DNA from: a virus
Lineage: Duplodnaviria; Heunggongvirae; Uroviricota; Caudoviricetes
DNA: 32,400 bases
Direction: 5' to 3' (one strand)
Virus record (IMG/VR): IMGVR_UViG_2778261574_000008
Span: 1 to 32,400 of that record
Shown one piece after another: positions 1,690 to 8,660 of this stretch. Both the position numbers and the translations under genes were made by a program. The notes under the pieces were generated by a model. The model was not told the origin of the DNA, did not search any database, and saw only the letters and a list, made by a program, of their open reading frames with translations. Positions within the stretch are counted from its first letter, which is position 1. The number at the start of each line of letters is the position of its first letter.

Positions 1690-1704
1690 TGGTGTCCCCT
1701 GCAG
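1690..1704 (-). other. Putative prophage attR core: 15-bp fragment matching the 3' end of tRNA-Arg (argW type), CTGCAGGGGACACCA on the minus strand, with no tRNA 5' half
   Basis: Minus strand reads CTGCAGGGGACACCA, which matches my recollection of the argW 3' acceptor end including CCA. Upstream sequence does not form a tRNA, so this is a core duplicate, not a gene. Orientation puts phage DNA at higher coordinates. Confidence 0.4.
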
Positions 1705-1777
1705 ACATCGACTTGAGGCGGCAGGGGATTGATTGGAATGGTGTTTTTTAGATGTGAGAAATATTTTACCCGCTATT

Positions 1778-1978
1778 TTACCCATTGGCGCGGCTTAAGA
1801 GCTTATTTTTGAATTCACAATGGTCACGATATAACCATCTTGCTCGACCGTGGATAACTTTGGCTTTTGGCAGGTCGCCGGACTTAATCCGGTCGTAGAT
1901 GAAGGTTTTACCGAAGCCAGTATCAGCCATGATGAATTTCAAATCAACCAGTGAATCAGGTTGTAGTTCGTGTTGCAT
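1778..1978 (-). CDS. torI: Excisionase / AlpA-family winged-helix DNA-binding protein (TorI-type prophage Xis)
   Basis: 66 aa with an AlpA/Xis-like helix-turn-helix region (FIMADTGFGKTFIYDRIKSGDLP). It sits directly next to the att core at the prophage end, as in the KplE1 (CPS-53) prophage where torI lies at attR. The symbol rests on recalled size, position and family. Confidence 0.6.
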   Translation of the reverse strand: MQHELQPDSLVDLKFIMADTGFGKTFIYDRIKSGDLPKAKVIHGRARWLYRDHCEFKNKLLSRANG

Positions 1979-2021
1979 GAGTGCTATCTCCGAATAGGGA
2001 ATCGAACCTGCAAATCAGGCA

Positions 2022-2043
2022 ATAAAAAACCGCATTGATGCGG
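2022..2043 (-). terminator. Intrinsic terminator-like hairpin at the distal end of the leftward early operon
   Basis: Minus strand reads CCGCATCAATGCGG followed by TTTTTTATT, about 80 nt downstream of the 2122..2337 ORF. Confidence 0.45.
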
Positions 2044-2121
2044 CGATGGTATGTCTGGATATCTTGAGAAATGAACAGGCCTCATCGAGTGTGAGGCGGT
2101 GTGATTTCTTTATTTCCACTC

Positions 2122-2337
2122 TTAATGCTTGTCAGTGAATGGTTTCTCCATCTCCATTAATGCCTTATTCATATCATTTCGTAACTCTATAGCCATCCTG
2201 ACGGCTTCAACTTGTGCAGGATGTCGGTTAATTGCTGGAGAATATCGTCGGGAGCGAAGGATTGAGAAAACAAAGATAATGCAAGCAACTATCTGAATTG
2301 CATTGCATATTATTGATACAATGTGAATTGCAGCCAT
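2122..2337 (-). CDS. Hypothetical small protein with a hydrophobic N-terminal segment (possible small membrane protein)
   Basis: 71-aa ORF; residues 5-27 (IVSIICNAIQIVACIIFVFSIL) look like one transmembrane helix. Last gene before the terminator. Confidence 0.4.
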   Translation of the reverse strand: MAAIHIVSIICNAIQIVACIIFVFSILRSRRYSPAINRHPAQVEAVRMAIELRNDMNKALMEMEKPFTDKH

Positions 2338-2414
2338 CTACTACCCCAAATAAAAAACCGCCATCAGGCGGCTTGGTGTTCTTTCAGTTCTTCAATTCGA
2401 ATATTGGTTACGCC

Positions 2415-2726
2415 TCATTCGATGCGCACTCCTGGTATTTCGCCTTTTGATATTGCTAAGTCATAAATTTGCGCGGCACTATACCCATCTCGCATCCATG
2501 AATCTAAGGCGCTAACAGCCTCGCTACGCTTTTTATCTTCTCTCTCATTTTTGATATCAACGAGGACATCAACGCAATTAAGGCAAATGTGGATTTTGTC
2601 CTTACATTCGATCATGGCGGCTTTACCATGATTTCCGCCACACAGTGAGCATAAATCTTCAGGGTCTGGCTGGTATTTCTGTAACGTTAGAGGGTTGAAT
2701 GTTGAACAGGTCATAATCATCTCCAT
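2415..2726 (-). CDS. Hypothetical phage protein with a Cys-rich zinc-ribbon-like motif
   Basis: 103-aa ORF with CxxC ... C ... CxxC spacing (CSLCGG ... CLNC); co-oriented in the early-left operon. Confidence 0.5.
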   Translation of the reverse strand: MEMIMTCSTFNPLTLQKYQPDPEDLCSLCGGNHGKAAMIECKDKIHICLNCVDVLVDIKNEREDKKRSEAVSALDSWMRDGYSAAQIYDLAISKGEIPGVRIE

Positions 2727-2813
2727 AAAATAAAACTCGCCGTAGCGAGTTCAGATAAAAGAAATCCCCGCGAATGCGAGGATTGTTATTCACCTTTGAC
2801 GTCAAGTTGCAGG

Positions 2814-3116
2814 TTAGCCATGGTTAACCTCCTGCGGAGTAGCCTTTACAAGCACTGGTGTAAATCCATCTTCATTAAGGTTATGAATATAGACTTCCGT
2901 TCTCCTGCGCTCTTCAGCGTTTAATATGGTTTCTGGATCATAAACCCATACTTTCATTCGACTATTCCATGAAGAAATCGCTTCAGATCTAGTTCGTTTT
3001 TCTGGTCCTTGGGCACCACATTTGCATGACACATAGCGCATTTTCCCTCTGATACTGAATGAGTATCCGATGTTAAGCACAGTGGAACCACAGAATGGGC
3101 AGCGATAGAGATTCAT
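2814..3116 (-). CDS. Lar-family restriction alleviation protein
   Basis: 100 aa with an N-terminal CPFCG zinc motif and CKCG second motif, typical of the Lar family; stop overlaps the upstream gene. Confidence 0.6.
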   Translation of the reverse strand: MNLYRCPFCGSTVLNIGYSFSIRGKMRYVSCKCGAQGPEKRTRSEAISSWNSRMKVWVYDPETILNAEERRRTEVYIHNLNEDGFTPVLVKATPQEVNHG

Positions 3117-3793
3117 AAATCATCCACCTTAGGCGCAGCTGAGACAGCAACATTCCAGAACTCAGAAAACATATTGTATGCACCAGATAGATTGGAAGTG
3201 GCATACCCTCCAAGCTCACTTCTAATCTGAACGGCTCTCATCATTTCCGGCGTTAACTCCTTCGGCACCATAACCCAACCATCCGGAGTTACCGGAGAGT
3301 TGCCATCCAGCGCGTTCAACTTGTAAGCCTGGCTTACAGGTTCGGCACTATGAAGCATGGCAGCGCGGCAGGCGTTCCAGCCTTGAACCTTAGCTATTGC
3401 CACAACTGCATCGGTAAAGAACATTCTCGCGGTATCTGGCTCCGGCATTTCATCCGGCACCGCTTGCTGCGGTAACTGTGGTACAGTCAGTGACTCCAAT
3501 TCAGCGATACGCTTCTCTGCGGCTTCCAGTTCATCAAGCAGCGCCAAGACGGTAGCCGGATTGGCTGCGGCGATGAATTCAGCATTGGCCTGCTGTTCCA
3601 TTTGGAAATCTTCATCGAAACCGCTTTCAGGATGCGCTCCTTCAATTCTGCAAATGGGAAGATATCCAACAACTTCACGATGAATTAGCGCATCACCAGC
3701 ATCAAATCTCTCCTCTCCATATTCGAGCGACCACGCACCACACGTTGCTTTTTCTGCTGCCTCACGCAGTGCCTGATAGTCAATCTTGTTCAT
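3113..3793 (-). CDS. Ead/Ea22-like early-region protein
   Basis: 226 aa; N-terminus MNKIDYQALREAAEKAT plus a coiled-coil segment (LLDELEAAEKRIAELE) resemble the Ead/Ea22 family of lambdoid early-left regions. Confidence 0.6.
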   Translation of the reverse strand: MNKIDYQALREAAEKATCGAWSLEYGEERFDAGDALIHREVVGYLPICRIEGAHPESGFDEDFQMEQQANAEFIAAANPATVLALLDELEAAEKRIAELESLTVPQLPQQAVPDEMPEPDTARMFFTDAVVAIAKVQGWNACRAAMLHSAEPVSQAYKLNALDGNSPVTPDGWVMVPKELTPEMMRAVQIRSELGGYATSNLSGAYNMFSEFWNVAVSAAPKVDDL

Positions 3794-3794
3794 G

Positions 3795-4094
3795 TCACAT
3801 CACCCTGAAGCCGTTGCATTTACGTAAGAAATCGCAGATATAGCCCTTCATTTTTTCATGCCAATCTCGATCATTCCCATTGCACCACCCATCAGGTGGA
3901 GTCCAGTTTTCTATCAGAGCAGCCATTTTCTTTGCTTTCGCCGGAGTAGCTGTTGCGGTATCGCAGTAATGACGAGTGTCAACAAACTTATCCATGCCAT
4001 CGATATCAAGTACGCAAAACCATGTGTGATTCGGAATTCCTACAGGTGGTATTTGTTGCCCACGTCGGCGTTTATCAATGAGATATACACTCAC
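3795..4094 (-). CDS. Hypothetical phage protein
   Basis: 99-aa ORF tightly packed (2-4 nt gaps or overlaps) with neighbours in the leftward operon. Confidence 0.5.
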   Translation of the reverse strand: MSVYLIDKRRRGQQIPPVGIPNHTWFCVLDIDGMDKFVDTRHYCDTATATPAKAKKMAALIENWTPPDGWCNGNDRDWHEKMKGYICDFLRKCNGFRVM

Positions 4095-4495
4095 TGGTTA
4101 CCTCCTTTGCGAAGCTCTGCGGCGAACTCGTTAAGTGATATGTAGCAATCTCCAAATGTTAACGAACCGCTCGACTGCATATGCTCCATAGCCATCTCCA
4201 CACCCTGCGCCCGTACTTCAGCCAGGAAAGCATCGGTGGCTGGGGTTTCCGTGAAGTTGTCCTCCCAACCGTAGTACTCCTGACGACAGAAGTTATTAAA
4301 TTCCTTCTCCGACTGTTTAAGCGCCGCATTATCCGCTGCCAGCGCCGCGCACTTGGCCTCCGCTTCAGCAAATTTACGCACCAGATATTCAGCGTTTGTT
4401 TCGTTAACCTTTAAATCTCGTGGGATGCATTTACCTTTCAGAAAACCATCCATCTCAATTAGTGACATTTGTTTCATTTCTTCCCACTCCGCCAC
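4091..4495 (-). CDS. Hypothetical phage protein
   Basis: 134-aa ORF whose stop overlaps the next gene start; charged, helical composition. Confidence 0.5.
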
Positions 4496-4656
4496 ATCGC
4501 ATTCAGATATTTGTTTTGATTCACTGATGGAAACGAGTTTCGCTTAAGTAATTCCTCTCTCGATGGCATTGGCTTTACGCGTTGGCGAATAATCATTTCT
4601 GCCGGAAGAATGCCGGGATTGTATGCAAGTCCTCTCATGGTAAATTCCTCAGTCAT
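4474..4656 (-). CDS. Hypothetical small protein (60 aa from the internal start; the ORF is open up to 4791)
   Basis: ATG at 4654-4656 overlaps the stop of the 4649..4945 gene, suggesting translational coupling; fills the gap between two flanking genes. Confidence 0.4.
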
Positions 4657-4945
4657 TACTGATAGCGCCATAGCGTGAGCGGTAATTACGCAGGCGCGGG
4701 TCGATATATTCAGGGAAGTGGGTATATGTGGCTTTGCGGAATGGTCGGATTGATGTCTGGTAAATTCGCTCGCGTTCTTCTTTCTCTGCAAGCCATATAC
4801 AATGGCGAAATTCCTTTTCCTCTTTCGTTTCCTGCGGTAGCGACATTATCCGGTCGTAGTTTTTCCTGAATTTATCCAGCACCTCCGATACGGAATTGCC
4901 GGAACAGCGGCGCGGGTCATCCGCACCATACAGAGGCGCTGGCAT
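4649..4945 (-). CDS. Hypothetical 98-aa protein at the Abc (anti-RecBCD) position downstream of the recombination genes; possibly Abc2-like
   Basis: 98-aa ORF immediately downstream of erf/ssb, matching the size and position of P22 Abc2. Sequence identity not verified. Confidence 0.45.
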
Positions 4946-4968
4946 AATGGAATCCTTATTTTGCTAAT

Positions 4969-5352
4969 TTAGAAGGGAATTGAATCGTCGTATTCAGGAT
5001 GATTTTGATGATTGCTACTTTGTTGCTGTTGGCTGTTTCCTGAAGTTGCAAATCCAATCTTTGCATTCAGTAATTCAAGAGTGATTGATTGACCATTTTG
5101 CCCCTGATAAACATCAACCCTGATGTTTTCTCCGGTAATTTCAACAATGCCACCTTCAACAAGAACACTACAGTAGTAATCCACTTGCGCTCCCGGCTTG
5201 GCAAATACAACGGCGCTGTAGTTTGTCCATTCTTTCTTTTTTGTCTGGCGATCGTAATACTGAACGCCAGCACGGATGTTGAATCCGATATTTTCCCCAG
5301 CCTGAAACTCTCTTGCAGGTTTGTTTAGTCTTACAGTAATCGAATGTGCCAT
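4969..5352 (-). CDS. ssb: Single-stranded DNA-binding protein-like (phage SSB)
   Basis: 127 aa with a Gln/Ser-rich linker and an acidic C-terminal tail ending YDDSIPF, the hallmark SSB tail (DDDIPF); directly follows erf. Confidence 0.55.
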   Translation of the reverse strand: MAHSITVRLNKPAREFQAGENIGFNIRAGVQYYDRQTKKKEWTNYSAVVFAKPGAQVDYYCSVLVEGGIVEITGENIRVDVYQGQNGQSITLELLNAKIGFATSGNSQQQQSSNHQNHPEYDDSIPF

Positions 5353-5957
5353 TAAGCAATCGCTCCTTCTAATTCGTCTCGTCTGATGTTGTAAACGTCC
5401 TGCGCTTTGTGCTGCTCAGGTGTGCCTTCGAGCATCTTCCACGCTTTGGCGAACGCCTGTTTAAGCTCTTCTACGGTGTTTTTTTGCATTGCTGCGTCAG
5501 TGAATGCTTTTAGAACCTGTTCAGGTGTAGGTGATGGTTTTGATTGCTTTGCTGCTGCGTTCTGCTGATGTTTATGCTCGTCTGTATCTGCATCTTTCGC
5601 ATCATCAATGCCGAACAAACCATTGAGGCAATACTTGCGTGCATAAGAGCTTGTAGCTCCAGTAACTTGTGCAGAATCCATTCCTTTCTTGCTTTCTTCC
5701 TCTCGTGCAAGGGCAGTTGCCGTATGACTGTTTTCGCCATCGGTAATAGTTGCCGTGGCTTTCACGTAATACCGATCACCAATCAACACAACTTCATCGC
5801 TGATTGATAAAAACAGGCCATTCAGTAACGGCTTAACGCCTTCAAGAATGTCTTCGCAGCTTCTGTATTTATATTTACCGAATGAGTTGTACTGATTCTT
5901 TGGCGCGTTCAGATTCTCCTGAATAGCTGCCAGTCTTGCGTAAAATTCTTTGCTCAT
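5352..5957 (-). CDS. erf: Erf-family single-strand annealing recombinase
   Basis: ORF open 5352..5987; likely start at MSKEFYARLAAIQ (5957). Pattern resembles P22 Erf; sits in the recombination slot of the pL operon. Confidence 0.7.
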   Translation of the reverse strand: MSKEFYARLAAIQENLNAPKNQYNSFGKYKYRSCEDILEGVKPLLNGLFLSISDEVVLIGDRYYVKATATITDGENSHTATALAREEESKKGMDSAQVTGATSSYARKYCLNGLFGIDDAKDADTDEHKHQQNAAAKQSKPSPTPEQVLKAFTDAAMQKNTVEELKQAFAKAWKMLEGTPEQHKAQDVYNIRRDELEGAIA

Positions 5958-7191: not shown

Positions 7192-7491
7192 TCAAATAAG
7201 TGGTTTGCTGCCTAATTTCATTTTCTGGCGACCAACACAAGTCACACCCATTTCACTACGTGGCTTGCTGTAGTAAATACGGTTCTGTTTACTCTCGACT
7301 TCTTCTGCCTTCTTGCAGCGAAGGCTTCCGAGTGATGCTGCTTTGTCTGCTCTGACGCAACCAGAGAGCTTTAGCGCAATTTTTCGCGTCAGTCGCTGCT
7401 CTTGCATTGCCTGTTCACGTTGAGCCTGTCTGCGTGCTCTGCGGCGATTTCTGGCGTTATCGTCAGCCAGATATGTAATGACTACTGTCAT
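7192..7491 (-). CDS. N: N-like transcription antitermination protein (phage 21 / P22 gp24 type)
   Basis: About 100 aa from MTVVITY (GGAGG Shine-Dalgarno 6 nt upstream); N-terminal arginine-rich motif NARNRRRARRQAQREQ; C-terminal two-thirds match my recollection of phage 21 N. The ORF-track N-terminal extension is rejected. Confidence 0.65.
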   Translation of the reverse strand: MTVVITYLADDNARNRRRARRQAQREQAMQEQRLTRKIALKLSGCVRADKAASLGSLRCKKAEEVESKQNRIYYSKPRSEMGVTCVGRQKMKLGSKPLI

Positions 7492-7801
7492 GTTGACCTC
7501 CGATGAAACAACTTTGGAATTGATAGTGATTGCAAAGTGGTTTCTGGCCCCTCGAACTGAGGGGCAGAAAGAGCATCTCGCCACCTAATAGGTCAATGCT
7601 CGGATCGAGAGATTTAATTAACCTCGGTTTTGAAGTTATGCATTCACATAAATCCTCCTGTTGCATGTGCAGCATTGGCTGTGTTTGGCGGCTGCATTTC
7701 GCCTATGGAATTGACTTTGGCGGTGACGCGCCGGGTGCTTATCTTCCGGTTGCCGTCGTGCAGCTGCACTTCACGTCACCCCAAAGCCAACTACTCTTTG
7801 G

Positions 7802-8009: not shown

Positions 8010-8660
8010 TTATGGAAGGTTTGCTAGTTTTGCATCGACAACTACGCCGATGATTTTGCAGTTTCCGTTGATCTCGATCATCGGATATTGTGGGTTAAGT
8101 GGTTTTAGAAACTTCCTGCCTGCATCAATAACTAACTTCTTGAAAGTTGCCTCGTTTTCTCCTTCGAGCTTTGCAACTACCAGTTTCCCGTTACGCGGCT
8201 CTACTTCAGGATCGACGAGTATTATCATTCCTTCAGGGATACTGAGACCGGCCGGAGCCGTCATTGAGTCTCCCTTCACGTCCAACCAAAACGAATCTTC
8301 TGAACAGTCTACGGTTGTATCGTACCAGTTATCTATTGCACGCTTATGATATGGTTCTACAGCTTCCATCCAGCATCCTGCGCTCACCCAGCTAATCAGA
8401 GGGTATGACCCTCTTGGATCATGCCTACTGTGATAGGCAATGTTTGAAAGACTTTCCTCTCCTTTCATCAGATAGTCAGGGGAACACTTCAACGCATTAG
8501 CCAGGGCGAGAAGATTCTCTCCATTTGGCTCTGTCTCAGAGCGTTCCCACTGAGATATGGCAACATTAGACACGCCGACCATCTTTCCAAGTGCGGCCTG
8601 CCTGATCTTGAGTTCTTTTCTCCGAGCGCGAATGCGCTCTCCCATCAATTGAGTTTTCAT
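8010..8660 (-). CDS. c2: Prophage repressor, P22 C2 / lambda CI family (HTH plus S24 LexA-like peptidase domain)
   Basis: 216 aa; near-identical by recollection to P22 C2 (MNTQLMGERIRARRKKLKIRQAALGKMVGVSNVAISQWERSE ...); divergent from cro across an operator region. Confidence 0.9.
   Translation of the reverse strand: MKTQLMGERIRARRKELKIRQAALGKMVGVSNVAISQWERSETEPNGENLLALANALKCSPDYLMKGEESLSNIAYHSRHDPRGSYPLISWVSAGCWMEAVEPYHKRAIDNWYDTTVDCSEDSFWLDVKGDSMTAPAGLSIPEGMIILVDPEVEPRNGKLVVAKLEGENEATFKKLVIDAGRKFLKPLNPQYPMIEINGNCKIIGVVVDAKLANLP

Follow-up and report, generated by a model that had tools for sequence, protein, structure and literature searches.

The window analyzed here is a 32,400-nt stretch of viral DNA whose positions 2122–4945 hold eight ORFs, all on the minus strand and each with a match to a phage protein family. 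An earlier note on this DNA had spoken of seven genes, but its own list sums to eight, as does the ORF count. Its placement of the genes far along the pL operon is borne out: they form the distal, nonessential part of the leftward early operon of a lambdoid, P22-like prophage. PHROG matches upstream, all leftward, comprise a repressor, an N-like antiterminator, cIII, Erf, and an SSB-like gene, and the gene order is that of the P22 ea region, erf-(abc1)-abc2-orf56-eaE-...-xis, and also that of HK620 hkaC-hkaJ. The features, in the direction of transcription, are as follows.

8010–8660, leftward: repressor gene (PHROG match)
7192–7584, leftward: N-like antiterminator gene (PHROG match)
4649–4945, minus: abc2, anti-RecBCD protein 2, 98 aa (PF11043, phrog_656, identity to P22 and Sf6)
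4474–4638, minus: DUF2737 gene, 54 aa, homologue of P22 orf56, HK620 HkaI, and Sf6 gp23 (PF10930)
4091–4477, minus: EaE/HkaH-like mosaic gene, 128 aa (phrog_614)
3795–4094, minus: DUF7739 gene, 99 aa, equivalent to Sf6 gp22 (PF24881)
3113–3793, minus: Ead/Ea22-like gene, 226 aa, equivalent to Sf6 gp21 (PF13935)
2814–3116, minus: Lar-family gene, 100 aa, equivalent to Sf6 gp20 (PF14354, TIGR03655)
2733–2784, minus: two tandem intrinsic-terminator hairpins in the spacer between the Lar-like and gp19-like genes (terminator scan and RNA fold)
2415–2714, minus: gp19-like gene, 99 aa, start at 2714 (phrog_3680, 100% identity to Sf6 gp19)
2355–2374, minus: intrinsic terminator 3′ of the gp19-like gene, shared with Sf6 (terminator scan, Sf6 alignment)
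2021–2348, minus: 328-nt cassette absent from Sf6 (Sf6 alignment)
2122–2337, minus: 71-aa ORF of uncertain coding status (phrog_15342)
1979–2020, minus: pI-type (CII-activated) integration promoter region 5′ of torI (assigned via identity to Sf6 and HK620)
1778–1978, minus: torI/xis, 66 aa, final gene ahead of the prophage end (phrog_66 excisionase)

Across 69% of the interval 1700–5400, the DNA is 97.9% identical to Sf6. Seven of the eight products are known phage proteins, the exception being the 71-aa ORF; six are 96 to 100% identical to Shigella phage Sf6 gp19–gp23 and gp25, and the remaining one is related, as a mosaic, to P22 EaE and HK620 HkaH. Downstream, TorI is 100% identical to Sf6 gp18 and HK620 HkaC, and the sequence at 1979–2020 shows no difference from the Sf6 bsq2/pI region or from the HK620 features annotated as promoter and cII protein. 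Phage homology stops at about 1690, placing the end of the prophage at about 1690–1705; an oligosaccharide MFS transporter gene adjoins it. Some match to parts of the region occurs in 4558 of 5426 complete Escherichia coli genomes. We consider it very probable that 2122–4945 is the "ea" accessory segment, equivalent to lambda exo-xis, of the leftward early operon of an Sf6/HK620-type P22-like prophage, a degree of confidence that covers identity, expression model, and protein functions together. The cluster is thus already known, as a near-copy of the ea region of the published phages Sf6, HK620, and P22.

Gene order and strand agree with Sf6 genes 18 to 25 (NC_005344) and HK620 hkaC-hkaJ. Sf6 shares TorI, gp19, and the Lar-like gp20 at 100% identity and gp21, gp22, gp23, and gp25 at 96 to 98%, together with the terminator 3′ of gp19 and the pI region. 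Unlike Sf6, the window lacks gp24, carries the EaE/HkaH-like gene between the DUF2737 and DUF7739 genes, and carries the 328-nt cassette with the 71-aa ORF between gp19 and pI. The recombination module also differs from that of Sf6 and HK620, consisting of a P22-type Erf and a short SSB-like gene. The P22 ea region (abc2-orf56-eaE-...-eaD-...-xis) and lambda exo-xis likewise place nonessential distal pL genes between the recombination genes and xis, and Abc2, orf56/DUF2737, EaE-like, and Ead/Ea22-family genes are shared with these regions. P22, however, has abc1 5′ of abc2, lacks the Lar-like, gp19-like, and DUF7739 genes, and has ral located elsewhere, whereas the window contains none of the lambda genes orf60a, orf61, orf63, orf73, and ea8.5.

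Translational coupling and protein families

The junctions from abc2 through the DUF2737, EaE-like, DUF7739, and Ead/Ea22-like genes to the Lar-like gene are, in order, a 10-nt gap, ATGA, GTGA, a 1-nt gap, and ATGA. The tight coupling claimed for the whole cluster therefore holds for these six genes, but not for the two distal ORFs, which intrinsic terminators isolate. The spacer between the Lar-like and gp19-like genes folds into a pair of hairpins with U-tracts at −30.2 kcal/mol (z = −4.66; none of 200 shuffled sequences folds as well), and additional terminators separate the 71-aa ORF from the gp19-like gene on one side and from torI on the other. A promoter scan returned fewer sites than shuffled sequence. 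By analogy with lambdoid phages, transcription from pL, left of the repressor gene, would be rendered termination resistant by the N-like protein after induction or infection. The transcript would run through erf, the SSB-like gene, and abc2, then through the five translationally coupled genes, and antitermination would carry it past three terminator sites to the gp19-like gene, the 71-aa ORF, and torI.

The ORF that had been described as Abc2-sized and at the anti-RecBCD position is Abc2 itself. It matches PF11043 over profile positions 1 to 97 of 97 (E 4.3e-62; 206.8 bits against a cut-off of 25), is 93% identical to P22 Abc2 over 98 aa and 98% identical to Sf6 gp25, and matches "Anti-RecBCD protein 2" in PDB 8b1t and 8b1u (E 1.4e-56), RecBCD complexes of P22 Abc2 having been solved. 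Among the cluster proteins, only Abc2 rests, by sequence, on a closely related characterized protein, and it alone supplies a firm mechanism. Given its near-identity to the P22 protein, it would bind RecC and redirect RecBCD, so that linear phage DNA would be spared degradation and Erf recombination could go ahead.

The Lar-like family feature was likewise confirmed, with scores above the cut-offs for both PF14354 (35.8 bits; cut-off 28.6) and TIGR03655 (58.7 bits; cut-off 39.6). The protein, 100% identical to Sf6 gp20, consists of a predicted zinc ribbon at residues 2 to 54, in which the cysteine pairs C6-x2-C9 and C31-x-C33 align with those of RalR, followed by a 46-aa C-terminal extension. 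Its start overlaps the Ead stop codon (ATGA). Like Rac Lar/RalR, it belongs by curated HMMs to the Lar zinc-ribbon family, is small, and is encoded near lambdoid prophage recombination genes; it differs in the extension and in an identity of only 34% over 53 aa. At the level of the family, it would alleviate type I (EcoKI-like) restriction. The characterized member RalR is also a DNase toxin; in Rac it is paired with the antitoxin RNA RalA. No RalA-like RNA was detected with Rfam, which matched no RNA family in the window.

The Ead/Ea22-like assignment stands as well: the N-terminal domain (residues 3–122) scores above threshold against PF13935 (E 2.1e-23; 83.8 bits, cut-off 27), and the protein is 96.5% identical to Sf6 gp21. 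The PDB contains the structure of the lambda Ea22 C-terminal domain (PMC10834534). We rejected kinship of the C-terminal domain of the window protein with that domain for want of a PDB match, no Ea22 chain appearing among matches with E up to 10; divergent C-terminal domains are a noted trait of the family (PMC10834534). Ea22 is on record as a three-domain tetramer with a pro-lysogenic phenotype (PMC7093339, PMC10834534), described for the lambda and Stx-phage proteins (PMC7093339). The EaE-like gene is a real ORF, although the 134 aa first assigned to it require a GTG at 4495; the likeliest start is the ATG at 4477, which overlaps the DUF2737 stop codon (ATGA) and gives 128 aa. Its product matches phrog_614 (E 1e-55) and is 60% identical to P22 EaE over 65 aa and 56% identical to HK620 HkaH; neither Pfam nor the PDB gave a match. 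The C-terminal half of phrog_368 matches the C-terminal part of the EaE-like protein and its N-terminal half matches the Ead/Ea22 gene, so by these matches the Ead and EaE-like modules exist fused in that family. On the model of the lambda and Stx-phage Ea22 proteins, both products would be multimeric coiled-coil proteins with variable C-terminal domains, most likely tilting the lysis–lysogeny decision via a host partner.

The two remaining coupled genes encode conserved small phage proteins that have no detectable relatives of known function. The DUF2737 ORF is real, but its likeliest start is the ATG at 4638, preceded by GAGGA 7 nt upstream, which gives 54 aa rather than the 60 aa that the ATG at 4656 would require; P22 orf56 begins at the same MRGL. 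From that start the protein is 75% identical to P22 orf56; it is 100% identical to HK620 HkaI and matches PF10930 (E 1.5e-30), with no relative in the PDB. The 99-aa protein of the earlier description is a member of the DUF7739 family (PF24881, E 8.6e-19; 97% identity to Sf6 gp22), encoded from a GTG that is preceded by AGGAGG and lies in the GTGA overlap. With 45 representatives among 1.84 billion, the family is a small one, and no PDB relative was found, even by profile search. Ead/Ea22, DUF7739, and DUF2737 are thus recognized families, each without a known biochemical mechanism.

Counter-defence functions and the 328-nt cassette

The earlier note regarded the less familiar genes of the cluster as the likeliest place for unrecognized functions. 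Apart from the 71-aa ORF, these products prove to belong to named DUF or PHROG families and are 96 to 100% identical to published Sf6 or HK620 proteins (56% to HkaH for the EaE-like protein). That the gp19-like, DUF7739, DUF2737, and EaE-like proteins and the 71-aa ORF are mainly unrecognized counter-defence or superinfection-exclusion factors seems to us rather unlikely. Their operon also contains abc2 and the Lar-like gene, both anti-defence genes, its modules are mosaic and swapped between phages, and accessory regions with abc2 have yielded genes that interact with host immunity, P22 abc1, which triggers a P4-encoded cell-death locus, being an example (bioRxiv 10.1101/2023.04.06.535777). 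Operon position, however, is weak evidence. PADLOC matched none of the eight products to a defence or anti-defence model, its sole match being that of the neighboring TorI/xis to mad1, and none of the members in question has a PDB relative with a known anti-defence function. The PHROG category of all cluster products other than Abc2 and Lar is "unknown function." The only experimental phenotype published for relatives, that of the Ead/Ea22 family, concerns pro-lysogenic control of development rather than counter-defence (PMC7093339, PMC10834534). Well-characterized homologues of unrelated function, named in advance as the finding that would count against the proposal, were sought and do not exist for every member; the counter-defence idea for these members is therefore not refuted, though nothing in this analysis supports it.

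The 71-aa ORF had been described as a single-pass membrane protein. A small hydrophobic ORF is indeed present, with a hydrophobic N terminus at residues 1 to 27 (Kyte–Doolittle mean 2.0–2.4) followed by RSRR, but it might not be a true gene. A 13-nt direct repeat, GCGGTTTTTTATT, corresponding to duplicated terminator tails, bounds the surrounding cassette, which contains the ORF (2122–2337) and its own terminator, a hairpin plus U-tract at 2029–2044. The cassette also occurs in IME10, Sf101, and E. coli ECCHD184, 3′ of different genes. As a discrete insert between flanks conserved in Sf6, present or absent as a unit and carrying a terminator, it resembles a moron; a moron's own promoter was looked for on the minus strand of 2021–2348, where the promoter scan gave no sigma-70-like site.

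Whether the cassette is instead noncoding DNA, such as a duplicated terminator spacer or regulatory RNA segment acquired by terminator-tail recombination, is close to an even question, leaning slightly toward no. The repeat at its bounds and the missing promoter-like site fit such an origin. The ORF sequence occurs in 79 of 5426 E. coli genomes, and neither the 30 E. coli records listed nor the most similar records listed, IME10 and Sf101, carry any annotated feature at the matching position. Among 5.8 billion clustered proteins, the only homologues found share at least 94% identity, none being diverged, and variants with stop-codon loss and an in-frame insertion occur. Against this reading, the ORF is intact in all copies examined and has a PHROG family of its own, a GGGGT motif lies 6 nt 5′ of the ATG, four of six substitutions fall at codon position 3, differences from IME10 are rarer in the ORF (1.9%) than in its flanks (4.4%), and the hydrophobic helix before RSRR is clean. 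We picture the ORF as part of a promoterless cassette that would have recombined in at a terminator tail and that may or may not encode a small inner-membrane protein.

Resemblance of the gp19-like protein to ClpX

The description of a zinc-ribbon protein was correct for the gp19-like product, which, started at 2714, has 99 aa and carries a predicted C4 zinc-binding domain (ZBD) of the ClpX type at about residues 20 to 58, followed by a helical module at about 55 to 99. In hhalign, the family profile aligned with the ClpX ZBD profile over 38 columns (probability 94.2%, E 1.1e-7). ClpX was the top match in each of the sequence searches: the single sequence gave E 0.053, a profile built from 20 sequences E 0.017, and one built from 52 sequences E 0.0031, this last search, against the PDB, returning ClpX in six of its seven matches. 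PF06689 is the top Pfam family for 18 of 20 family members, all below its gathering score; the window protein itself scores 15.7 bits against the cut-off of 27. C22, C25, C44, and C47 (C-x2-C-x18-C-x2-C) are invariant in 52 sequences and stand in the register of ClpX C14, C17, C36, and C39, and the hydrophobic positions F16 and I46 of ClpX are retained as L24 and I54. A 58%-identical member (P0063) bears the UniRef label "ClpX-type ZB domain-containing protein," and the AF2 model has a pLDDT of 87 to 92 within the ZBD.

Set beside the ClpX ZBD (PDB 1OVX, 2DS5–2DS8), the protein thus has the same zinc site followed by a helix, with the ligand-patch positions conserved in hydrophobic character. 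It differs in having a conserved YQPDPEDL segment before the domain and the helical module after it, a module common to unrelated phrog_7798 proteins. It is a stand-alone phage protein without the AAA+ module; with 99 aa matching only ClpX residues of about 13 to 58, it was rejected as a ClpX unfoldase.

The ClpX ZBD is the docking site of lambda O, SspB, RssB, and trigger factor (PMC7804408). The gp19-like protein would most likely bind ligands of the ClpX N-domain or pair with that domain, altering ClpXP substrate choice, and may thus act as a ClpX decoy or modulator. A free ZBD could sequester its ligands, such as SspB- or RssB-type adaptors or phage proteins of the lambda O type; alternatively, pairing with the ZBD of ClpX itself could dock the helical module onto the unfoldase. 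The fuller proposal, that Sf6 gp19-type proteins are phage-encoded ClpX ZBD mimics that reprogram ClpXP substrate choice in lytic growth or excision, is speculative, and we consider it unlikely as it stands. That the protein is a generic treble-clef zinc finger, for instance a small DNA- or RNA-binding excision regulator in which the likeness to ClpX is functionally meaningless, is possible but doubtful: ClpX headed every sequence search with E values that fell as the profile grew, the profile–profile probability is high, and both the four-cysteine spacing and the hydrophobic positions are kept. Literature searches found no paper on a phage-encoded ClpX ZBD mimic.

As a whole, the cluster is of little importance; its value is that of a worked example of the distal pL region as a mosaic of exchangeable modules, in which the terminator-bounded cassette illustrates how short terminator tails can serve as recombination joints for module exchange. 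The one new lead is the apparent resemblance of the gp19-like protein to the zinc-binding domain of a host protease subunit. ClpX mimicry, if true, would add a new route by which a temperate phage manipulates a host AAA+ protease. Lambda O, Mu transposase and repressor, sigma-S, and type I restriction alleviation are all under ClpXP control, so a phage copy of the substrate-docking domain of ClpX would offer a simple and testable way into how host proteolysis is adjusted by temperate phages.

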